DNA of 61,510 nt, filler included. It is 14 parts of 14 records of this genome, joined end to end, with 100 filler letters (N's around TTAATTAATTAA, not from the genome) between each part and the next. Parts side by side here need not be neighbours in the genome. Positions count along the whole stretch, not along the records: positions 3,407 to 6,585 come from SRR7504441_80183; positions 6,686 to 11,101 come from SRR7504441_80794; 12 more parts are not named here. The stretch is one strand, 5' to 3'. The notes beneath the pieces are model-generated. The model searched no databases. It was not told the DNA's origin and was given only the letters and a program-made list of their open reading frames with translations. Made by a program: the position numbers and the translations under genes. This document shows, one piece after another, positions 3,407 to 30,946 of this stretch. Within the stretch, counting starts at the first letter, position 1. The number at the start of each line of letters is the position of its first letter.

Positions 3407-3580
3407 CACCCGCGCTGATTGAGTTAACAAAAATTCCTTCTCATGCATTCGGCCTGGCCCACTAATTAAGAGGCCGTTACGCGATGGAGGGGGCCGAGCG
3501 TTGGGATGAGGGGCTGGGCGGCGATGCGCTAGCGGAGTTCTGGTTGGACGGGGACTTGAACGCGGGCGCTTTCGGGGGGT

Positions 3581-6166
3581 TTGTGCATGGGAACGCGAGC
3601 AATCGCGACGGCCGGCGGCACAGGCGATCGCGTGGGAACGCGGGGGGGGGGGGACAAGCGGCAGAGGGATTGGGCAGAGCGTCGGTCAGATCAGCGGCAG
3701 ACTGGCGAACGCGCACAGCAGCGACGCGGTAGGGGGTCAGCGGAGAGGCGGCGGGCACGGCGAGCACAGGACGGGACGCGGGGCGTAGTCAGCAGCGGCG
3801 GCAGTGATAGCGACAGTCCGGGCGAGGACGCGGGATGGGTAGACGCGCTGAGCTGGGTATCGGCGGTCGAGGCGGGCAGTGCAGAAGTGGAGGGAGGTGC
3901 AGTGCACGAAGCTGCGCGGCAGGTGGAGGAGATCCGGCGGTGCGAGCAGGTAATTAGGCAGCTAGAGGAGACGCTGGAGCAGAGGACGAGGCTGGTATGG
4001 ATAGCGAGAGGACAGGCGCTGGGCAGGGCGATCAGGAGGAGGCAGGCTGGTGGTACGACAGGGCAGCGGACATTGGGGCAAATTGTGGCGGATTGGCGGA
4101 GGGCAGCACGCAGAGCAGCAGCGGTTAGCGTGCTTTTACAGCGGGCGGCAAGGGCGGCAGGGGTCGGGTTGGCGATGCAGATGCTGGTGTACAACTGGAG
4201 GTGGGCTGCTAGTGAGGGGACAAGGCATGGGGCCGAAACAGGGTCACTGGTGGCAAGTGTGTTGGCAGGGGTAGCGGAGGAGGATAGGCTCAGGCTGGAG
4301 CAGGAGCTGCGCAGGCGTGAGATGCTGGGGTGGAGCAGAGGGGAGCAGAGGGTGGATGAGATATACAGGGAGGAGTTCAACAGGATGGAGAGGCAGCTGG
4401 GGCAGAGTGAGACGGAGCTGAGGGAAACGCAGGACAGGCTGGATGGAGCAGAGTGGCAGTTGAGGTTAAGGGAAGAGGCAGAGCGGGTGGGCAGGGGAGA
4501 GGAGGAGTGGCAGCGGGTGCTAAGGAAGTACGCGGAGCAATGTGAGCCGGGGGAGAGCATTTCCTATACGAAGTGCACGCTCAGGCGCTACTGGGACGAG
4601 CCCAGGGTTAGGATGTCGGTGGCAGAGGGGGTGTGTCGGCAGCTGGAGGAGAGGGTGGAGGTGGGGAGGGCTGAGACGTTGGGGGAGGAGGTGCAGTGTT
4701 TGCAGGAGAGCAAGCGACGGCTGGAGCAGGAGGTGACGAAGTGGACGGAGGCAGCGGAGGATGCGGAGGCGGGTTGGATGGAGCAGCAGGAGAGGATGTT
4801 TGCAGTCGTGCAACAGCTGCAAGCTGAGAGGCAGAGTCTTGAGCAATTGAGGCAGGATCAATGGAAGGAGAGGGAGCGACAGAAGGAGGAGCATCGGAGG
4901 CAGCGGCGTCTGTTGCATGGGCAGAGGTTGGTGGAGGCAGCGGTCAGCAACGGGAGGGCTAGGATTTGGCGGATGCCGTGCCTGGGGCTGCAGGAGTTGG
5001 GGGAGCTGCGAGTTGTAGCAGGGGTGAGTGCAGGGCTCAGGCAGAAAGAGGTTGGTGGGGGGGCGGTGTTATTTAATTATAAGTCTGGGGACGAGTTGGA
5101 TGGAGTGGTGGACAAGGTGCTGGGGATCAGTGCAGAGGACAGGGTGGACAAGGTGCTGGGGAAGGGTGGGAGAGACAAAGCGTGGCTTCAAGCGCGGCGG
5201 AGGGTGGCGGAGCTCGTTCACGAATGCAGGGGAGTGGTGTTCTCAACTGATGGCAGGGTGTTGGCAAGGCCGGTACAGCGGTTCATGAGGCTGTGGGAGA
5301 TGCAGCGGCTGGCGGACCAGATTGTGCCTGAGGTGGTGACAGAGAAATTAGATGGCGAGATGATGTGTGGGATGGTGGTGGGGGGATCGGTGGAGCTATG
5401 GTCCCGAGGCGGATGGACCGAGCAGGCGGTGTCAGCAACTCGGGCAGCGAGTGAACAGCCGGGGATTTGCGAGTTGGTGTCTGAGGTGTGGGAGCTGGGG
5501 AGCAGTGTGACTTTCGAGTACATCGGCAGGCAGAGCTTGGTGAAGGTTAGGTATGAAGAGACGCAGCTGGTAGTGGTGGCAGTCAGAGTGCGGGACACAG
5601 GAGAGTGGTGGGCGTACGAACAGCTAAAGGAATTGTGTGAGCGGCACGGGGTAGCGGTGGTCCATAGGCTGAGCGATCTGGAGAGTCTGACGCTGAGGGA
5701 ATTGGGTCGTGTAGTTGAAGGCTGGGTGGGGATGGAGGGAGTTGTGGTTTGGCTGGGGGCGGGTGAAGCGTGCAAGGTCAAGACCAGATGGTGGCTGAAC
5801 AGGAGCAGCAGACAGAAGCGGAGATGGTACAGGCCACTGGCAAGAGAGCGGGCGACGGAGAGGCGGGCAAAGCGGGAACAGCATTTGGAGACGGTGCAGC
5901 AGAGGGTGACGCTTCGGGGCTGGTGCAGCAGGGTGAGCCCAGTGGAGGCAATGAAAGCCTTTGGAGCTGACAAGGTTGAGGCTTTTTATCGGAGGTCGGA
6001 CGGCAAGCAGGGAACAGTAGTGGTGAGTTTTAGGGAGGCGGACAGGGCCAGGAAGTTGAGGGGCCAACAAATTTGCGGGGACCAGGAGCTGTGGGCAGAG
6101 CAGGCATACAGCATGAGGTCAAGGAGCAACGAGTATAGAGTGGTGAGGGCATGGTGGGGTGCATAG
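3581..6166 (+). CDS. Intronless 861-aa protein: long coiled coil + T4 Rnl1-like RNA ligase domain + C-terminal RRM-like domain
   Basis: Rnl1-type LFNY and ECRGVVFSTDGRVLARPVQRF, then nucleotidyltransferase motif I EKLDG (Lys codon 5345-5347), III TFEY, IIIa VVAVR, IV EGVVV and V KVK. E/R/Q-rich heptad region upstream. C-terminal RVTLRGW..KQGTVVVSF..A..LRG resembles RNP2/RNP1. Confidence 0.82.
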   Translation: MCMGTRAIATAGGTGDRVGTRGGGDKRQRDWAERRSDQRQTGERAQQRRGRGSAERRRARRAQDGTRGVVSSGGSDSDSPGEDAGWVDALSWVSAVEAGSAEVEGGAVHEAARQVEEIRRCEQVIRQLEETLEQRTRLVWIARGQALGRAIRRRQAGGTTGQRTLGQIVADWRRAARRAAAVSVLLQRAARAAGVGLAMQMLVYNWRWAASEGTRHGAETGSLVASVLAGVAEEDRLRLEQELRRREMLGWSRGEQRVDEIYREEFNRMERQLGQSETELRETQDRLDGAEWQLRLREEAERVGRGEEEWQRVLRKYAEQCEPGESISYTKCTLRRYWDEPRVRMSVAEGVCRQLEERVEVGRAETLGEEVQCLQESKRRLEQEVTKWTEAAEDAEAGWMEQQERMFAVVQQLQAERQSLEQLRQDQWKERERQKEEHRRQRRLLHGQRLVEAAVSNGRARIWRMPCLGLQELGELRVVAGVSAGLRQKEVGGGAVLFNYKSGDELDGVVDKVLGISAEDRVDKVLGKGGRDKAWLQARRRVAELVHECRGVVFSTDGRVLARPVQRFMRLWEMQRLADQIVPEVVTEKLDGEMMCGMVVGGSVELWSRGGWTEQAVSATRAASEQPGICELVSEVWELGSSVTFEYIGRQSLVKVRYEETQLVVVAVRVRDTGEWWAYEQLKELCERHGVAVVHRLSDLESLTLRELGRVVEGWVGMEGVVVWLGAGEACKVKTRWWLNRSSRQKRRWYRPLARERATERRAKREQHLETVQQRVTLRGWCSRVSPVEAMKAFGADKVEAFYRRSDGKQGTVVVSFREADRARKLRGQQICGDQELWAEQAYSMRSRSNEYRVVRAWWGA

Positions 6167-6197
6167 ATGTGGGCACTAGGGGACAGGCAGGAGTCTG

Positions 6198-6277
6198 GGC
6201 AGCGGATTGGAGTTACAGCAGATTGGGATGGCAGCGGATTGGAGTTACAGCAGATTGGAGTTACAGCAGATTGGAGC
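6198..6277 (+). repeat. Tandem repeat of a 16-nt unit GCAGATTGGAGTTACA, including a 29-nt direct duplication
   Basis: ggcagcggattggagttacagcagattgg occurs twice, followed by agttacagcagattggagc. Confidence 0.9.
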
Positions 6278-6332
6278 AAGTAGTTAGCGGATACTTAGGA
6301 GTTACGGTTAGGAGTTAGCAGATAGGAGTGGG

Positions 6333-6441
6333 GGCGAGCGCATCTCGCGCGGAGACCCGGGTCGCTTTGTTGGCGGTTTGGGGGGTCAAACTTTGATCGT
6401 CAATAGGGTGATTTGGGTCTCTACGCGGGGGTGCGCTCGCC
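6333..6441 (+). ncRNA. Long G-U-rich stem-loop (candidate structured RNA or ssDNA element)
   Basis: Manual pairing of 6333-6378 with 6441-6395 gives 32 Watson-Crick and 13 G-U pairs, one C-A mismatch and one bulge. Confidence 0.7.
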
Positions 6442-6916
6442 GTGAGTCTCGAGGCGGTATGCCTCTACAGTGGTGTGTTGTGATAATAGCGTATGCCAAG
6501 CAAATGCTGCTGTGGCATTGGAGCAATGCATCGAATAAACGCTAGGTCTGGGCGAGGATGTCGGTGCGCCAATGCCAGTGGGTAGNNNNNNNNNNNNNNN
6601 NNNNNNNNNNNNNNNNNNNNNNNNNNNNNTTAATTAATTAANNNNNNNNNNNNNNNNNNNNNNNNNNNNNNNNNNNNNNNNNNNNATACAGACTTGAACA
6701 CGTACTAAGCCAAGCTGCCTAAATACCTAGCCGCCTTGTTCGTACACAATGCCAAACTATAGTACGACTGATCAATCATGTTTATAGTGTACATACAAAC
6801 ATAAAAATTCTTTAATTTTCAGATCTTCTCAAAACCCAGCCGACTCGGTCACTACTCGGTCACCCGAGCTGTACCCGAGCTAGAGTGGACAACGCATTAC
6901 GCAACCATTGTATATA

Positions 6917-20038: not shown

Positions 20039-23000
20039 GCATGTAGCCAAAGGCCAAATTCGGACCCAGCACCAGGGAGATGATATCTCACTTCCCAATC
20101 TTGTCCCTAGTATTACAGTTTCGTTGGTTATCCACCATTGAAAATATTGCTGCTCGAACCTGACACAGTTGCTTTTCTCAAGTTCTTTGTGGTGCGGTTC
20201 TGTCCTTGACAGCACGATGGCATGCGCATTTGTTCCAGAAAACCCGAACGAGTTTATGCCTTTCGATTGGACAGGACTCTCGCTTGTTTGCTGTGTCTTC
20301 AAGAGCGTTGCAAAATTCTGGAGTGGAAGGTGCTCGTTTGGTCGTTTCAGGCTTAAGTTGGGAGGAGAAAGCCGCTTTTCCAATCCGAGCACTGCTACAA
20401 CTAATGAAGCGCACCCAGTGAAGTACTCGGCATGTCCCAGGTGGGTTTTAAGAGCCCCAATGCTAACTGGCGTATGCAGATGCCCATTTCCAAGCGCAGA
20501 ATGGAGTGCATCGATCTCGATTGGGTCGCCGAGTGGAGTGCCCGTTCCATGAGCCTCGATAGAGTGACGCAAATGATCGATCCTTGCCTGTTGCAAGGCC
20601 TTGACCAGCATCGCACGCTGAGCTGTTCCATTCGGTGCTGAAAAACTGGCGCTGCGGCCATCTTGATTAACGCAGGTAGACCTGATTACAGGCAAGTCTA
20701 GTTGTATCGACTCCAATACTACAGCAAAACAACCTTCCCCAAGACCAAAGCCATCTGCGGCTGCATCAAATGTCTTGCACTGGCCATTGAATGCGAGTGG
20801 GAGTGTAATTGAGCCCATCCATGCAGAAGCATGAACTGATAAAGAGACACCCGCAACAAGTGCAGTTTGACAGCTCCTTCTGTGCAAAGATGCCCTCGCG
20901 GTGTCCAATGCCACCAATGATGCCGAACACGCAGTGTCCACTACTAGGCACGGTCCCCTGAGCCCTAAAATGTAGGATATTCGACCTGCCGCTGCAGCCG
21001 GGGAAGCCCCAGCTGCAGTAAACACGGACTCGGCGAGGTTTTCCAGCACGCGAGACCACAAAGTCTGGCCAAAGCCTATAAACACACCAATGCCTTGCTC
21101 GAATAGCGTGGATTTCTGATGGCCAGCGCGCGAGAAGGCACCAAAAGCAACTTCGAGAAGCAGCCGATGATTAGGATCAGTCACGCTTGCTTCAATGGGG
21201 CTAAGACCAAAGAATTCCTGGTCGAAAACTTCAGCACGGTCAACAATGTGTCCACGATATACCAGTGGTTGGATTGAAGCCTTCGTCTCAACTGACTGCG
21301 AGTCGCATCGCGAGAGAGGTGGAATGCTTGTCGAGTCGTGTGCAGAGGATATCGCTGCCCAGAGGAGCTGGGTGTCAGAGCACCCATCTGGTGCTCGACA
21401 GGAGACACCTCTGCACTTCGGTAATAAGGTCGAGTCGTCCAAACACAGATCGTCATTGGCCAAGTGAAGAGCTGCCAGCGGGTCTCGATTTTGTCTGCTG
21501 CTCGCATAAAGAGCGATCGCCCGGACTGTCGGATAGCTGAAGACCAAAGTCGCCGGTAATCGCGTAGTCTGGTCCAAAATAACATCTAATGATCTTGCAA
21601 GCTCCACAGCCTGGCTTGACTTGAGCCCTGCTTCTAAGAGTGGCTGAGTGGCCACAATTGCTCGGCCCAGGACTTGACTGACATGTGCAAGGACTCTCAG
21701 CTCAACGCTCTGTTCAAATTTGCTCGCAGAGGGCTTCCCAACAAAAGAGCACGTGTTGAGTAGAGGCTCCTGGCTGCCTCTTGAATTCTGCAGGCTTATT
21801 TGTTCGTGGTGACCATGATCCAGGGGCACTGTTCGAGCAACCTTTGAGTGGCTGTTTGTCCCCGATACCTGATCTGCTGCTGCTGAACCTCTGGCCTGAT
21901 TTCTGCAGCTGGACTGCGCTCTTGTATCTCTCTGATTTATGGCCTGGTTGTATTCAAGAGCAAGGTGTACGTTGAACCCACTTCCAGATGTCCCGCTTAT
22001 CCCGATTGAGAGGATTTCTCCTTCCAGGCGAATGCTTGTATGAGATATTGGAAGGCAAATACTCTGCTGGGAATTTCTGAGCCTACTACAGAGGGTGTCG
22101 ATCCCAACTGCACCGGGAACAGCCTGATGGTGGAGTGCAAGAGTGCACACAATGGCTGCAATGACACCAGCAGCAGACATCGAATGCCCAATGTGCCCTT
22201 TGTGTGAGATTAAAACGAGTGGGCTCGATGCTGAGCGGGTGGCAGCCATCGGCATCACAACTCCATCTATTTCAGGGAGGTCCGAAGCTGGATTACCCAT
22301 GGCATGTAGGTGAACGGCTGCTTCTTGATCAAGTTTCCTCGTGGCTTTCTGGGTCACAGTCTCCATAGCATCTGGATCAGCAAAGCCTAGTGGGCACTGT
22401 GTACCATTCTGGTTGGTGGCGTGGCCTGTAAATGCAGCTAGAGAGCGTAGCTGCGAGGTGGTTCTGTGAAGAATCAAAGAACCATAGGCTTCACCGGGCA
22501 TTGTTCCATCGGCACTCTCGTCTAGTGGCTTCAAACGGCCAGAAGGCGAGAGAATGCCAGCTTTATGAAGTTTTATGAGCTCGGCTGTATGGAGCATCAG
22601 ATAAACGGCGCCAATGACCGCAAATTTGCAGCTGCCCTCCTCGATTGCGCGGATTCCTTCATCTGTTGCCAGGTACCCCGCCGAGCAGGCAGCTGTCACG
22701 TTGGCATGTGGACCGTTGATCTGAAGGGTGGATGCAACAACATGACTTATATGGAATGATCTGGTGGGCACCAAGAAGTCCAGAGGGTCAGCTCCGGTAA
22801 AAAGCCCAACCTTTTGATCCAATGCAGACAGCGTGAGATCAGCATCTTCTTCAGCTGCACGTATGATTTCCACTAAGCAGTGCACATGCATGTCGGTGTA
22901 AGGAGGTATTTGTCGGATTGCAGGTTTAGTGGCGTCATGAAGTTGGACAAACGCACCGCTGTAGATAGTGCTAGCGACGGCTGCTTGCTTGCAGGCATCC

Positions 23001-23631
23001 ACCCAGCGGGTCGGCGATGAAGAGGTGATGCAACATCTGCCCGAAATAAGCACGTCCCAAAGATGTGCAGGGTCATGAACGCCGCCGCTCGTGTGGCATG
23101 CAAACCCGCTTACACCAACACCAGATTTTTTTTCCGTTAGGTTGTGAGGCACCATTGTGAGTTCCATTACAGTGGATTTCACGACGAGACAATCGTCAAT
23201 GTATTGCGCAAGCAAAGATGCTGTAGGATGCTCGAAGAGGATTGCGCTCGGGAGTTCAACATTGATTTCCTGCTGCAGCAAATTTCGAAACTCGATTGCG
23301 GACAAAGAATCTAATCCAGAGTCTTGGAGAGAATCGTCTGCGGAAACAATTGTCCCAGTAATTGCCTTGACCTTCAAAATGATTGTGTCCAGTACCTGAC
23401 TGAGTGTCTGCAAGGCCGAATGACAAGAATGCGAATCAGACTTTACATAGGGTTTGGCCTTTGTTTGCTGCCAGCCTATATTAAGCTGCCGTAGACCAAA
23501 CTGGGGTGTACTCCAAATGGACATGCTCTGCAAGGCAGCCATTGCTCGAAGGACACAACAAACAGAGGGGACAGTTTCCTTCAACAAAGATGTGGGCGTT
23601 TGCACTGTATACAACTCAGCCCAAGCCCCCC
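20039..23631 (-). CDS. Modular type I polyketide synthase fragment: ACP-KS-ACP-KS, no AT domain, open at both ends
   Basis: ACP GLDSLSAIEFRN. KS1 TAACSAG / HLHAMG / KGHIGH. ACP EAGLKSSQAVEL. KS2 DTACSASL / EAHGTGT / KTHLGH / NSFGFSGTNAH. Confidence 0.93.
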
Positions 23632-27004: not shown

Positions 27005-30000
27005 CCTGGCGGGCCGGCTGACAGAGGCGGCTGCAGAGGGGCGCCGGCATAGTGCTGCGGAAGCAGGGCAAGTTGGCGCTCTTAGGGTTTTCGGCACAAT
27101 TAGTGCGGGAAGTTTGACATTTCGAACACCCACCGCACAGGAGCCTCTCAGCATTCCTTTGAGTGCAGCCGAGTGCAAGTTTGAAGGTACAAAGCGCGAC
27201 GACGGCCATTTTGTCGCCTCTTCGTTTGTTGCTGTAGAAAAGATGTCAAGCACGTTCGATGCTAAATTGTTCCCACATCTTTTCTATTTCTTCATGACGC
27301 TGCAGACCATGCTGGCTTCGTGGCTTGAGCGGGGAGGGAATCCGGACGTCTTCTCTCCACACTTCAAGGCAGCAAACGCTGAGACAAATCCAACGCCAGT
27401 CCCACTTAAGCAGGAGGCCCGACCGTTGAGTGGAATGCTTCATATCACACGGATCGATATTGCTCTTCGAGGAATTGAAGTGGGTGCCCGGGCTGACCAC
27501 CAGCTGCTTGTGATCAAAAGTCAGGACTTCAGACTAATCTTGCGCAATGTTCTAGGAGGTCGAGGTGTGACACCGACAGCTGATGTTGACTTCGGGCATG
27601 TCCATCTCAAACTCTATGGAGAGCACCGCATTCGGAGTGACTTAGTGCCTGGCAAAATCAGCAACGAGAGCCAGAAAGTGCTTCACGCACAAACATGTGT
27701 CGAGATGGTACATCAGTTTGAGCAAAGCCCAGTGTCACCATCCACCTGGAGAATCAAAGTTGCGCTAAGTGACACGCGAATCATCGTCCATCCAACATGC
27801 CAAGAGCACATAGTCAGCTTCCTTACATACTTTATGTCTTCCTTTGCGCAATCTCGTGATGACTTTGATCTAGACTTGGAAGTTCTTGACACAGTGGTTC
27901 AGCCTCTTATGAGCGAGGGTGTTGAGCTGTTTAAGGAAAAGTCAGTTCAAAATCTGGAGAAGCTAAAAAAGAATCTGAGAGCGGGTGGCTGGACTGTATC
28001 GCTCCATTTTTTGATGAGAGATGTATCTTTATGCTGTGCATTCAGCAGTCGCAGCCATTTATTGCGAGGAGCTCCGGACTCTCGAGAGTTATCAGCATTA
28101 ATTTTGCTGTTTCCTGAAGCAGTAATGACATCAAGGATCACGGGCTTAGGCAACCAGCACTTCAAGGGGCTTGTACATACTGATGTAAAGGAATGGCAAT
28201 CTTACTTCAGATCGGGAGTGTCAATGAAGACACTTGCATCAACCTTGCAGCAGCAGCAGCAGCAGCTTTCATACGCCAACCAAATCAGATTTCCGGGTGG
28301 TCGACATGAGGCCATATTCGAAAGTGACATGTATGATGGCACTCAGAAAACGACCATCTGGCTCAATTCACTAGTGTCGCTGAAGGAAACTACAGAGATC
28401 CGGATTAATGCTGATATCTGGGAGCATGTTTTTGAGCTTGTGAAGCAATATGGCGATGATTCGACGGAGCCGTTACTGCCATCTTCTGGTCGGGAGGCAT
28501 TCACAGGTGCAGTTGTGGGTGCAGAATCCAATACATCAGACGAGCTGTCTGATTCCAGTGAGTTGTCTGATTTTCAGATGCCTCAGCACCAACTGCTTAT
28601 CCACACTATGTTACAAGCCCCTTCTGGGCAGTGCAAGGTATACTTAAAAGAGCAGGCATCGAGCACAAGTCAGTTTATTGAAACACCGGAAATTGCACCT
28701 CTCGCAGTTTTCATGCTTCCGTCGTTTCGATGCAGCATGCAATCCGTCAACTCGATGCAGCCTGGTGTGCAAGGGGAGAGCTGGACAGACATTATCTTGG
28801 GACAGAACAACCCTGTGATCCAATTTGATCCTAAAATACTGCTGTTTTTCGACCAGCTCATGACTGTATCCGAAGAATGCAGCCATTCCACGCCGTACCG
28901 GCGTAACGTGTCAAGCCGCCAAAACTCGGACAGGCCTCCGAGACCACCACAGCTGCATGGATCTCTGACCCCTAGTCCAGCAACTGGAATTTGGAGTCGG
29001 CTGAGAAGGCGTGGTAGTGCTGGGGCGGCTACCCCCAGTGACAGAGAAACTGAAGGGTCACAGCCTAATTCTGAAAGCAAGACAGAAGTCGGTTCGACTT
29101 CAGGCGAAGTCGGTTCGACTTCAGGCACCTCGCATCGTCGTGGCCGCAGTGCAGATTTGACAAGCAATCATGAGCCCAAAGAAGGCCTCGATCATAGCAA
29201 GACGAGCAGCCCTGCTTCTTCCTTTGCAAGCTTTGGGCAGGACACAGGTTTCGATGCTCAGAATCAGAATCGCAGTACGGACGAGGTGACTCAGGACAAC
29301 ATCGGCTTTGCGCCAGGGGAACAAACAGACGAGACAACAAACAAACTTGAGGATTGTGACAACAGCGCTCACGATCTGCATAAATATGTGCGAAGGCTCA
29401 CTTTTAGAATGGCGACCACCCGAGTCGATTTTGTTGAAGCTGAAATGGATGAGTACTCTGAGACAGTCAGTGCTGTATTTCACGGCATCAGTGCTGCATA
29501 TGTGTCTCACACATATACCTCTGCGGACGATGTCAATAATTCCTCCTGGGAGTTTGCTCCAATGCTGTACATCTCCTCTGATGGCTTTGGGGTCTCGGTT
29601 CTTGAGAAGGAAGATATCGATCCAGACCAGGTGAATAGGGTTCAGATCAGCGGTGTATCTGCTACATTTGGAATGATGCCTGCTGCCAAAGGGTTAAAGG
29701 AACAAATCGGAGTAATGGTCACTGTGCAAGACATTGGCGGGCTAGTTGACCTGGACAGCATTCACTGCTTCTCTAAGGTGTGGCATAACTGGTGCAGCTC
29801 CGCAAGCTTCACCCGTGCTGTAAGCCCCACCAAAAAGCCTAGGGCTGCAGATACTCCTCAACCTTCCACTCATTTTACTCCGTCTTTGTCGGAGGGGTTG
29901 ATCTTGACCTCACTGGTTGTATGTAATTCAAAATTCACTATCAAGTGGCCCTCAAAGGAAGAGATGTCTGTAGTAGAGATCTCGAAAGGCAGCTTCAAGG

Positions 30001-30946
30001 ACATCTCAGGACGGCACACATGGATCCTTGTGGTACAACAAGCGAGGCTCGAAGTGTACGGGCAGCTGATCAATGGTACAGCAAAGCATGGTTTGTTGTT
30101 GTCAGTTGGCAGCATGGAGTTGTCAGACTCTTCTGATACTAACACACTATTGGTGAATGCAAAAGTATTCGAACAGTCGGAATTCCAACAGTCTGAGGAT
30201 GCTTGTCTTATCATACATGGGTTGGAAGGCTGCAACCAAAGGAGGTTGCAGCTGATGGTAAGTCGCTATCAAATAGAGGTAAGAACGTGTGACAATTGGG
30301 ATGTGAATCATGAGTCAATTCAGCTGCTCGATGTGGCTGGGAGCAGCGGGCAGCTTACCTTGGTCAACAATTTGGTCAAACATGACAAGACAGATCATGA
30401 TTATGATGCCATCCTCTCTGTCGGACGGCTTTACGTAGCAACTGACCCGCTTCTTCTCGAACGAGCCCAAAAGTTTGTGGAGCAGGTCTACAAGCTAATG
30501 ACGCAAAGGCTCAAGTTCATGTCAGAAACTGGGGCTTATGGAGTTGCTTGTGGCGCCTTTCTTGAAGTTTTCAAAAAGAAGAGGCAACCAAGCCGAGTCT
30601 TCTCGGATTCCCATCACGACGGTGCTTCGCAGCCAATTAAGGGACCAGTTGTGGCAAAGCGCATTGAAATCACTGGAGAATTAGTCACAATAAAGCTCAT
30701 GGCAGCAGAGACGTCTGGGTATATCACGAAAGCTGACTGGGTGCAAGTCGAGATTGGCAAGACAAGTATCAACGAATCTGAACAACCTTTTCTGCTATCG
30801 TTAACTAGGTACACAAAAGCTGACGGAAATGTTGCACGGCACCTGAAAGGGCATGCTGCATTTGCTCTGTTCAATAAGAATGTTCTCGTGTTCCGTATGC
30901 CAGACTCGGTTGGTTGTGTCAACGTGCGTACAATGCAACGTGCTGG
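27005..30946 (+). CDS. Internal fragment of a very large beta-rich protein of uncertain family (possibly a bridge-like lipid transfer protein)
   Basis: Over 1280 uninterrupted codons, open at both ends, with repeated beta-strand groups followed by a helix and a Ser-rich linker. The family call is tentative. Confidence 0.55.
29085..29126. repeat. In-frame perfect 21-nt tandem duplication, each unit a mini-hairpin
   Basis: (gaagtcggttcgacttcaggc)x2 encodes EVGSTSG twice. gaagtcg/cgacttc is an inverted pair. Confidence 0.9.

Follow-up and report, generated by a model that had tools for sequence, protein, structure and literature searches.

A predicted Rnl1-type RNA ligase with a helical arm and an RRM-fold tail on a one-gene contig

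We read the contig at positions 3407-6585 of the DNA analysed here as a one-gene unit encoding a predicted active RNA repair or processing ligase, which would be specific to a lineage of marine microbial eukaryotes and built to a new domain layout, and we put the probability of this reading at roughly 0.5. The layout leads from an Arg-rich N-terminus through about 400 aa of variable helical/coiled-coil sequence to an Rnl1 nucleotidyltransferase, a basic helix and a C-terminal RRM. RRM-tailed Rnl1 ligases are a coherent, fast-diverging and mosaic group, and the G-ending, purine-loaded codons, the 3' tandem repeats and a sense-strand hairpin are features of the transcript. A first-pass annotation of the same DNA had described this protein anatomy, a 3' repeat and long hairpins, and had suggested a mobile or RNA-based element; the anatomy, the repeat and one hairpin stand, and the mobile- or RNA-based-element reading gained no positive support.

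The window, i.e., the whole stretch of DNA that was analysed (61,510 nucleotides), consists of 14 contigs joined by N44 + TTAATTAATTAA + N44 linkers. According to the linker positions, 3407-6585 is exactly one whole contig of 3,179 bp, and since linkers bound it on both sides, its neighbours in the window are not linked to it. As the contig holds one gene only, it offers no partner enzyme (kinase, phosphatase or nuclease) and no neighbour gene by which the protein could be placed in a pathway. That gene is a single long ORF at 3581..6166, stop included, which yields 861 aa from the TTG at 3581 or 859 aa from the ATG at 3587; like all features given below, it lies on the + strand. The ORF list thus agrees with the first-pass annotation that the contig carries one ORF without an intron. 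The accompanying contrast to intron-rich host genes was overstated, since ORFs of 1196 and 1313 aa run without a break on other contigs of the window.

Judged from the sequence, the true start of the long ORF is uncertain. The 5' leader up to its first ATG (3407..3586) is without G skew, and bases 3407-3483 have a C content of 0.30 and a G content of 0.21. An upstream 82-aa ORF begins at the ATG at 3484 (3484-3732) in another frame; it includes a stretch of 12 consecutive G (3642..3653), at which the frame of this ATG and that of the long ORF overlap. Compared with the N-termini of relatives, the upstream ORF shows no significant similarity (E 0.13-1.2).

The Rnl1-type nucleotidyltransferase (ligase) domain occupies 5036..5815 (aa 486-745) and matches T4 Rnl1 in both sequence and fold. 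The set of ligase motifs is intact, as had been claimed at first pass, and comprises ECRG (5222-5233, aa 548-551), RP (aa 563-564), RF (aa 567-568), EKLDG (aa 588-592) with the motif I residue Lys589 (5345-5347), FE (aa 645-646), EGVVV (5735-5749, aa 719-723) and KVK (5774-5782, aa 732-734). Key residues are invariant in 11/11 close relatives, and K589, D591, G592, E646, G649, E719, G720, K732 and K734 are so in 41/41 relatives that share 27-54% identity. In a PDB sequence search all three matches were T4 Rnl1 (best 2c5u, E 2.9e-9, aa 548-743); the alignment begins at ECRG, at chain position 53 of 2c5u, and sets Lys589 against the T4 motif I lysine. The predicted structure of the domain (pLDDT 90.3) is likewise closest to T4 Rnl1, which provides the structural match foreseen in the first-pass annotation: T4 Rnl1 fills the top three Foldseek rows (E 2e-14 to 7e-14; 2c5u_A with E 2.2e-14 over 274 columns), and archaeal Rnl3, Naegleria Rnl5 and T4 Rnl2 rank lower by fold (E 1e-8 to 1e-5). 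Motifs and modelled fold together assign the predicted domain to the Rnl1 branch of ATP-dependent RNA ligases.

Profile searches delimit this likeness. The match to phrog_562 (E 5.8e-24) covers profile positions 52-252 of 377 only, and that to TIGR02308, the T4 RnlA equivalog, covers positions 51-249 of 373 only, at 53.4 bits versus a cut-off of 242.25. An assignment as T4 RnlA equivalog was rejected, with the score far under the TIGR02308 cut-off and the part after the nucleotidyltransferase domain unmatched. Among Pfam families, PF09414 is reached at 34.9 bits (cut-off 27). PF09511 (RNA_lig_T4_1) is not reached by the window's protein at E <= 1 and is passed by 9/10 distant relatives, at 34-71 bits versus a cut-off of 28.3.

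Within the N-terminus, good conservation is confined to an Arg-rich motif, RRGxGSxxRRxxRR (3722..3763, aa 48-61), whose residues R49, G50, R57 and R61 hardly vary in alignment A1 and which also appears in the consensus of alignments A2, A3 and A6. The variable E/R/Q-rich helical region (3833..5005, aa about 85-475) is the most divergent part among relatives, and for aa 1-330 no significant relatives were found. The long coiled coil of the first-pass annotation is suggested here by a crude 3.5-residue test of heptad periodicity, which gives z values of up to 5.4 and is clearest at aa 365-448 (4673-4924).

Between the ligase and the tail lies a basic helical linker (5816..5896, aa 746-772; model helix 273-288, i.e., aa 752-767), and the C-terminal domain follows at 5897..6163 (aa 773-861). 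Its model reaches a pLDDT of 96.2 and shows the order beta1-alpha1-beta2-beta3-alpha2-beta4. RRMs are on top of the Foldseek matches (best E 1.1e-3, TM about 0.6), and RRM entries are found throughout the 50 VIA-align matches listed (top Z 9.3, rmsd 2.3, 76 aligned). No Pfam RRM family matches the window's protein at E <= 1, and the usual aromatic RNP residues are not evident when strand 1 (RVTLRGW) and strand 3 (GTVVVSF) are read from the sequence. As modelled, the C-terminal domain is a non-canonical RRM fold, and the RRM-like tail recognised earlier is thus confirmed by model, Foldseek and VIA-align. The RRM comes directly after the ligase in the model, and no further domain lies C-terminal to it.

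The proposed mechanism is drawn from homology with T4 Rnl1, and within it the nature of the substrate ends, the part played by the RRM and a function in repair or conflict are inferred. Lys589 would accept AMP from ATP, the AMP would move to the 5'-phosphate of an RNA end, and attack by a 3'-OH end would seal the break. Since the protein has no kinase or phosphoesterase module, the ends must arrive as 5'-P and 3'-OH. The RRM, the basic linker and the Arg-rich N-terminus may select a single-stranded RNA substrate, and the helical region may oligomerise or tether the enzyme. The ligase domain is of phage or bacterial type, and the enzyme plausibly serves in RNA-damaging conflicts.

The protein belongs to a family of 1884 proteins at E <= 1e-3 and of 30 at E <= 1e-30, and of the 160 proteins examined, 65 have the RRM tail. 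A ligase-domain tree of 122 rows places the window's protein within a set of 32 rows, 31 tailed and one cut, with an SH-aLRT of 98; the tail label requires 3 changes on this tree versus a mean of 36 for shuffled labels. The RRM-tailed group derives solely from ENA, JGI and Logan assemblies, in marine assembly data, and neither an NCBI or UniRef source nor a functional name occurs among the relatives looked up (12 relatives and 10 clusters). Their contigs measure at most 4518 nt (12 relatives) and 3961 nt (10 clusters); contigs that carry short classical Rnl1 relatives extend up to 22 kb. Neither 185,579 prokaryote genomes nor IMG/VR yielded a relative, and of the 1298 phage records that match the ligase part, none covers 80% of the query. 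The RRM tail was found in no viral or prokaryotic relative from prokaryote genomes, IMG/VR or phage records. Mosaic relatives include the pair P0009/P0010, which is 80-95% identical over about the first 200 aligned columns and 35-50% identical in mid-protein, and the pair P0004/P0006, with 92% identity over the first 40 columns and 7-30% thereafter. One further relative is split into two pieces on a single contig of 3133 nt.

The extreme G/purine strand skew noted at first pass is borne out. The GC skew of the ligase contig is +0.446 versus -0.117 to +0.055 in the other 13 contigs, third codon positions of the long ORF have a G content of 0.596 and a C content of 0.135, and the resulting G3-C3 skew is 0.63, whereas 11 other ORFs in the window span -0.06 to 0.25. 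This outlier argues against an ordinary host gene, which should share host codon usage. The same codon bias is present in the relative L001, merely 42% identical to the window's protein. Near the 5' end, a block of 26 nt agrees with L001 at 22/26 positions, although L001 reads it in another frame; inside this block, at the start of the ORF, lies a 5-bp hairpin with a GNRA-type tetraloop (3594..3607), of which one pair in five is kept via a change on both sides, an anecdotal count from two sequences only.

Just past the stop codon, the 16-nt tandem repeat described earlier is present in 4.8 copies (6200-6276, score 112). Further downstream lie an array of period 13 with 2.6 copies (6295-6329) and a long RNA hairpin of 49 pairs (6331..6443). 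The hairpin folds at -81.9 kcal/mol on the + strand (z -10.3, 0/200 shuffles as good) and at -49 kcal/mol on the - strand, and because 16 of its 49 pairs are G.U, its inner half forms on the sense strand only. The earlier mention of long hairpins holds for this strong one and fails for the 3' stretches flanking it, whose structure does not exceed that of shuffles (z -0.44 and +1.67). Rfam returned one chance-level lncRNA row at E <= 1, with no ribozyme and no family for the hairpin. A candidate poly(A) signal, the AATAAA hexamer read from the sequence at 6534..6539, lies 46 nt before the contig end. The sequence of L001 stops 68 nt past its stop codon.

The aberrant codon composition across the family, the mosaic relatives and the absence from named proteins leave room for an origin that is selfish or foreign. 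We consider it unlikely that the unit is a multi-copy element, selfish or derived from a virus, that lacks a replication gene of its own; its ligase would then repair, circularise or join the ends of the element's own transcript or cDNA, with the mini-hairpin near the 5' end and the hairpin near the 3' end as cis signals. Such an element is favoured by a nucleotide bias that is kept between 42%-identical members and differs from the other ORFs of the window, by the intronless ORF, by the sense-strand-specific, G.U-rich hairpin and by the 5' block conserved in L001 despite the other frame. The relative in two pieces on one contig is also in its favour, and so are the long forms, which are all on contigs <= 4.5 kb, with none from a named proteome. 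The mosaic relatives fit a recombining multi-copy element and a conflict gene family equally; however, mosaic rows can be assembly chimeras, and short contigs are usual both in this assembly (3.2-8.8 kb for the 14 contigs) and for metagenome eukaryotes. The linked RT, recombinase or capsid genes that the first-pass annotation proposed to look for have no counterpart on the contig: no such domain, and no integrase, Rep or RdRp, is encoded on either of its strands. Stop codons occur in all three frames across 6167-6585, no second ORF begins in the 420 nt past the stop, and none enters from the contig ends. The contig is also devoid of terminal overlap, of terminal direct or inverted repeats and of any known ribozyme, which does not match a viroid-like or ribozyme-bearing circular RNA replicon, and the 61-kb window contains no further copy of the ligase gene, the long ORF being the sole tblastn match there.

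It is rather improbable that the ligase contig has another source than the organism behind the remaining 13, having been either binned or co-assembled from another eukaryote or derived from small extrachromosomal DNA. Such an origin would concern the location of the gene, not its function, and is thus compatible with any functional reading. The contig is a composition outlier among the 14, the window is made of unlinked contigs of 3-9 kb, and 4 marine metagenome runs from 4 studies contain, at low depth, pieces 99-100% identical to the ligase contig; a piece from run X4 reproduces the stretch 3555-3720, which includes the run of 12 G, without any difference or gap. In contrast, the GC content of 0.613 is inside the range of the other contigs (0.49-0.66), no terminal overlap suggests a circle, and the RRM tail is absent from viral and prokaryotic relatives. 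The runs with identical pieces carry the label 'DNA?', which is a guess of the tool.

We hold it to be very improbable that the contig represents a selfish, DNA-encoded RNA element from marine protists, i.e., a 3.2-kb unit carrying its own end-joining enzyme. In such an element the G.U-rich sense hairpin would be cut by a double-strand-specific RNase to leave 5'-P and 3'-OH ends, and the Rnl1-RRM ligase would then seal or circularise its own transcript. Extreme pyrimidine avoidance might shield the RNA from pyrimidine-specific nucleases, and the 5' GNRA mini-hairpin, found in different frames of two relatives, would be an RNA cis signal and not coding. Least credible is a LINE-like ORF1 (coiled coil plus RRM) with an inserted ligase and an RT-bearing ORF2 located past the contig end or on a partner element: the order of helical region and RRM resembles type II ORF1 proteins, 3' tandem repeats with a stem-loop are known from some stringent-type LINEs and a purine-rich sense strand from many retroelements, but the 420 nt past the stop are closed in all frames without a new ORF, AATAAA lies close to the contig end, no looked-up relative's contig could hold an ORF2 at the maximal lengths given above, longer fused forms of the protein were not found (weak evidence), and the RRM directly follows the ligase without a further C-terminal domain.

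On our preferred reading, the protein represents a large, diverse group without names in marine eukaryote-type data, in which an RRM stands in for a tRNA-specific domain and a long helical arm has been added. Such a group suggests that plankton have an activity which joins or repairs RNA. The G-ending, purine-rich codons, of which the genes are composed almost entirely and which are kept across distant members, suggest a rare constraint at the RNA or DNA level, which could mark a selfish replicating unit or an RNase-resistant message. The enzyme is a candidate single-strand RNA ligase with an inbuilt RNA-binding module, for which a practical use is possible.

Rnl1-type ligases are known chiefly from phages, in which they undo tRNA cleavage, and from the tRNA ligase of fungi and plants, whose sealing domain they form; in T4 Rnl1, tRNA is bound by the part that follows the nucleotidyltransferase domain. 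T4 RNA ligase 1 (gp63, RnlA; PDB 2c5u, 5tt6, 9do4) shares with the window's protein the nucleotidyltransferase domain, including the Rnl1-specific segment ECRG ... RPxx[KR]F before motif I as well as motifs I, III, IV and V, and its phage homologues are 25-30% identical to the window's protein. T4 Rnl1 measures about 374 aa, whereas the window's protein has about 480 aa of Arg-rich and helical sequence before the ligase domain, and its RRM replaces the T4 Rnl1 C-terminal domain, the profile being unmatched past about position 252 of 377. The Trl1 ligase domain of fungi and plants (PDB 6n67, 6n0v, 8rbj) belongs to the Rnl1 branch as a eukaryotic member and is matched by fold at E 5e-7 to 2e-5, much more weakly than T4 Rnl1. 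Trl1, as portrayed in the parts of the literature drawn upon, has end-healing kinase and cyclic phosphodiesterase domains, whereas the window's protein has neither.

LINE-1 ORF1p (type II ORF1) is composed of a coiled coil, an RRM and a C-terminal domain, and the ORF2 downstream of it encodes endonuclease and RT. The window's protein resembles it in a helical N-terminal half, a subsequent non-canonical RRM and the purine-rich sense strand, which is also known from LINE-1. LINE-1 ORF1p is without an enzyme domain, whereas in the window's protein a ligase separates the helical part from the RRM, and its gene has no ORF2 after it.

A further comparison is offered by RNA ligases of bdelloid rotifers, although the host there is an animal and the passages drawn upon describe no coiled-coil plus RRM layout (PMC11258130). 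The rotifer enzymes are likewise eukaryotic genes with phage- or bacteria-like domains, and PF13563, PF09414 and PF09511 are named in those passages (PMC11258130). According to the same passages, these horizontally acquired RNA ligases are strongly induced on fungal attack, and the authors propose that they repair ribotoxin damage (PMC11258130).

The contig at 3407-6585 carries an intact gene, in which an Rnl1-type nucleotidyltransferase with all catalytic residues is joined to an RRM fold; purifying selection acts on those residues across the large family to which the gene belongs. As claimed in the first-pass annotation, the contig holds one long open reading frame (3581-6166, plus strand; 861 aa from a TTG, first ATG at 3587). 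Pfam places RNA_ligase (PF09414, 34.9 bits) at residues 585-723, and a sequence search of the PDB yielded three matches in all, each of them T4 RNA ligase 1 (2c5u, 9do4, 5tt6; best E 2.9e-9). The alignment with the T4 enzyme spans residues 548-743, starting from ECRG, and Lys589 falls on the T4 motif I lysine. The T4 gp63 family of PHROGs (phrog_562) is matched with E 5.8e-24. PF09511 (RNA_lig_T4_1) is passed by nine of ten distant relatives, and Protein Atlas points to PF09511 clusters with a score of 0.88, which serves as a lead only.

An AlphaFold model of residues 480-861, built with 41 sequences (mean pLDDT 90.3), provided the structural match to Rnl1: T4 Rnl1 entries are the top three Foldseek matches (E 2e-14 to 7e-14, 271-274 columns), followed by archaeal Rnl3, Naegleria Rnl5, fungal Trl1 and T4 Rnl2 at E 1e-8 to 1e-5. 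The ligase motif set proposed earlier is indeed intact, and the catalytic residues never vary across the alignment of 41 sequences, which share 27-54% identity with the window's protein. Invariance is seen at K589, D591, G592, E646, G649, R669, G674, E719, G720, K732, K734 and R775; these make up the catalytic motifs, except for a single arginine located where the tail domain begins.

The tail (residues 760-861), modelled alone, reaches a pLDDT of 96.2 and adopts a beta-alpha-beta-beta-alpha-beta topology with two further strands. The top Foldseek rows are almost all RRM domains (best E 1.1e-3, TM about 0.6), and an independent search of 48,161 chains is led by musashi RBD2 (Z 9.3, rmsd 2.3, 76 aligned residues), with RRM entries filling the rows listed; a Z near 8 would on its own be middling. 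Since the structure matches listed are uniformly RRMs, the RRM-like tail of the first reading is supported by its predicted fold. No Pfam RRM is found in the window's protein, nor are the aromatic residues typical of RNP motifs evident, and the modelled tail is thus described as a non-canonical RRM fold. N-terminal to the ligase domain, conservation is confined to an Arg-rich motif at residues 48-61; the rest of this half is rich in E, R and Q and variable, and no scoring relatives were found for the N-terminal 330 residues. The long coiled coil proposed for this half is upheld to the extent of a 3.5-residue periodicity that peaks at residues 365-448 (z up to 5.4 in a simple test).

Twelve proteins of 496-837 aa span the whole ligase and RRM part with 47-51% identity. 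These close relatives come from ENA, JGI and Logan assemblies only, are annotated as "hypothetical protein" at most, and have longest contigs of 2537-4518 nt. An exhaustive search yielded 1884 proteins at E <= 1e-3, including 30 at E <= 1e-30. The tail was scored by profile in 160 proteins, namely the window's protein, the matches of the search that gave the twelve close relatives and the best 150 of the 1884, and is present in 65 of these. A tree of the ligase domain comprises 122 of the 160 rows (44 with tail, 75 without, 3 cut), the other 38 being left out as they do not span the domain. The set that includes the window's protein (32 rows; SH-aLRT 98) consists of 31 tailed rows and one that is cut. 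The tail label requires 3 changes on the tree against a shuffled mean of 36, and none of 500 shuffles is as low; therefore, the RRM-tailed forms constitute a coherent group apart from classical Rnl1. The tail-less rows measure 358-426 aa, bar one of 684 aa. The 33 listed members of ten further clusters all reside on contigs of at most 3961 nt, none with a named source, and ten classical short relatives are found on contigs of up to 22,352 nt. A distant Rnl1 relative at 5044-5430 on another metagenome contig (10,210 nt; 24% identity over residues 544-675) probably represents the classical short type.

Searches of IMG/VR with two different pattern sets and of 185,579 prokaryote species genomes yielded no relatives. 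Among phages, the ligase part is matched by 1298 records with identities of 25-30%, none of them covering 80% of the query. The literature searched, which excluded most subscription journals, describes neither a protein combining coiled coil, Rnl1 domain and RRM nor a transposon with an Rnl1 domain; in the available part of PMC3577742, RNA ligase serves only as a method. Taken as a whole, the protein adds to the Rnl1 ligases an architecture and a large family that are both new.

Four marine metagenome runs, each from a different study, contain pieces with 99-100% identity to the contig; the pieces are short, lack flanks and cover small shares of the contig, stretches with no coverage carry no information, and no RNA run was listed. 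A 190-nt metagenome contig from one of the runs (X4, record 11) joins position 3720 to 4716 with 6 other letters between. As a deletion variant this join was rejected, its far side of just 18 nt being too short to count.

The most surprising part of the finding is its nucleotide-level signature. The extreme strand skew noted at first sight is real: the contig has a GC content of 0.613 and a GC skew of +0.446, compared to -0.117 to +0.055 in the remaining 13 contigs. The skew sets in with the coding region (in the first 77 nt of the contig C exceeds G) and extends, in weaker form, into the 3' region. Third codon positions of the long ORF contain 0.596 G and 0.135 C, a skew of 0.63 versus -0.06 to 0.25 in 11 other long ORFs of the window. 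The amino acids reflect this bias: R, E, V, G and A together account for 55% of the residues, and N, H, F, P, Y, I and C each for less than 2%. The composition is alike in L001, a 3,275-nt metagenome contig encoding a relative with 42% identity over residues 306-859 (G 0.44, C 0.16; third positions G 0.56, C 0.15), where the leader is likewise C-rich and unskewed. The skew derived from amino acids is positive in most relatives, yet not discriminating, and counts of dinucleotides and G-quadruplexes revealed nothing telling. Antisense ORFs of 132-479 aa on the two contigs (up to 289 aa here, 479 aa in L001) match no Pfam family; they arise because the sense strand is poor in T and C.

Downstream of the stop codon lie the expected 16-nt tandem repeat (6200-6276; 4.8 copies, score 112) and a second one with a 13-nt unit (6295-6329; 2.6 copies). 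The whole 3' region folds better than 100 of 100 shuffles (z -7.25), an excess due to a single plus-strand RNA hairpin at 6331-6443 (-81.9 kcal/mol, z -10.3; none of 200 shuffles as good). Thus, one of the "long hairpins" reported previously stands; neither the repeat-bearing part (z +1.67) nor the final 130 nt (z -0.44) show structure beyond that of shuffles. The hairpin's 49 pairs comprise 24 G-C, 9 A-U and 16 G.U. The non-Watson-Crick pairs are all G.U and none is A.C; therefore, the structure is specific to the sense RNA, and on the opposite strand just the outer G-C part forms (-49 kcal/mol). Such a sense-strand hairpin could be due to selection on the transcript or to a strand-specific mutation bias. 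L001 ends 68 nt past its stop, short of the region where the hairpin would be compared. Across the whole window, Rfam has no family that reaches its gathering score, and at E <= 1 the contig 3407-6585 gives a single chance-level lncRNA row and no ribozyme.

At the 5' end, a second frame of 82 aa (3484-3732, plus strand) opens with an ATG at 3484, 103 nt ahead of the first ATG in the long ORF, and the two frames overlap across a run of 12 G at 3642-3653. The same run is found in a metagenome piece of run X4 (3555-3720), possibly from the same source. The second frame may represent an upstream ORF, the N-terminus displaced by a frameshift, or a site of slippage. It harbours a ten-residue motif that recalls the N-termini of L001 and of a close relative (P0002) at non-significant scores (E 0.13 to 1.2); by these scores ATG 3484, with a frameshift at the G run, is no more than a candidate for the true N-terminus. 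The long ORF's own start (MGTRAIATA) aligns with a GTRxNATA motif of several relatives.

Several relatives display abrupt shifts in identity along the protein (pairs P0004/P0006, P0009/P0010 and P0002/P0004). Compared in blocks of 40 columns, P0009 and P0010 share 80-95% identity in blocks one to five, 35-50% in blocks six to nine and 55-82% in ligase and tail, and P0004 and P0006 share 92% in the first block, then 7-30% and then 42-67%. These shifts suggest recombination among family members, or else chimeric assemblies. P0177 and P0179, encoded on a single 3133-nt contig, are 99% identical to residues 401-851 and 25-266 of P0045, and the contig either bears a disrupted copy or was wrongly assembled. 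The mosaic identity and the two-piece relative could each be produced by chimeric assembly.

Among the alternatives, a selfish or virus-derived unit fares best, though we consider it rather unlikely. The family is absent from named proteomes, its members look recombinant, and the codon usage differs from the 11 other ORFs of the window, yet is shared with a relative only 42% identical, which is not what an ordinary nuclear gene shows. Furthermore, a 26-nt block at 3586-3611 (plus strand) is identical to L001 at 22 positions and lies in different frames of the two long ORFs. It encloses a putative 5-bp stem with a GNRA-type tetraloop (3594-3607; 260-273 in L001). Of the block's four differences, two compensate each other in one stem pair (C-G to U-A), and the altered loop is still of the GNRA form; from two sequences, this conservation is only a hint. 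Against such a unit, the 420 nt after the stop codon contain stops in all frames, no ORF enters from either end, and 46 nt separate an AATAAA from the contig end. Moreover, the mobile element envisaged in the first-pass annotation found no counterpart on the contig: mobility or replication domains are absent from both strands, as are terminal repeats, terminal overlap, a second ORF and any ribozyme or other Rfam family, and longer fused forms of the protein were not found, which is weak evidence. The shortness of the contig is uninformative, since short contigs are the rule in this assembly.

Mis-binning of the contig is somewhat less probable still and compatible with any functional reading. 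The 61,510-base window consists of 14 separate contigs of 3,173-8,790 bp rather than one chromosome stretch, and the 3,179-bp contig 3407-6585 is exactly one of them. The contigs are joined by 13 identical artificial spacers (44 N, TTAATTAATTAA, 44 N), and therefore, adjacency in the window is meaningless and nothing is linked to this contig; the 12-mer TTAATTAATTAA also occurs once within a contig (47366-47377) without flanking N, as a natural occurrence and no joint. BLAST against the 61-kb window recovers the contig and its protein as self only. Among the genes on the other contigs are ordinary eukaryotic ones (actin family, polyketide synthase, MFS transporter, FMN-dependent dehydrogenase, GH3), and the dinoflagellate spliced-leader motif has no match at up to 2 mismatches, which says little. 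In two contigs (20039-23631 and 27005-30946), a single open frame spans the full length; one of these frames is polyketide-synthase-like with two ketoacyl synthase domains and a carrier domain, the other is a 1313-aa ORF without Pfam family. Finally, a LINE ORF1 proper is very improbable, as the stops in all frames, the AATAAA and the missing mobility domain and terminal repeats indicate one gene with untranslated regions and not an ORF1-ORF2 arrangement.

We favour, with a probability of about 0.5, a ligase for RNA repair or processing that is specific to a lineage of marine microbial eukaryotes and has a catalytic domain of the phage/bacterial kind. By analogy to the T4 enzyme, the protein would seal RNA in an ATP-dependent manner via a Lys589-AMP intermediate, and the substrate ends would have to be 5'-P and 3'-OH, since the protein lacks an end-healing domain. 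Substrate choice may lie with the RRM and the basic segments, and the helical arm might oligomerise or tether the enzyme. A family involved in conflicts would be consistent with how fast the non-catalytic half diverges and with its mosaicism.

Compared to known systems, the protein resembles T4 Rnl1 in its nucleotidyltransferase part, to which the match is confined (phrog_562 positions 52-252 of 377; TIGR02308 at 53 bits versus a cut-off of 242), and the remainder of the T4 enzyme is unmatched. A precedent for a phage-like catalytic domain in eukaryotes is provided by bdelloid rotifers: according to the available part of PMC11258130, their horizontally acquired, phage-like RNA ligases are strongly induced on fungal attack, and the authors suggest a role in the repair of ribotoxin damage.
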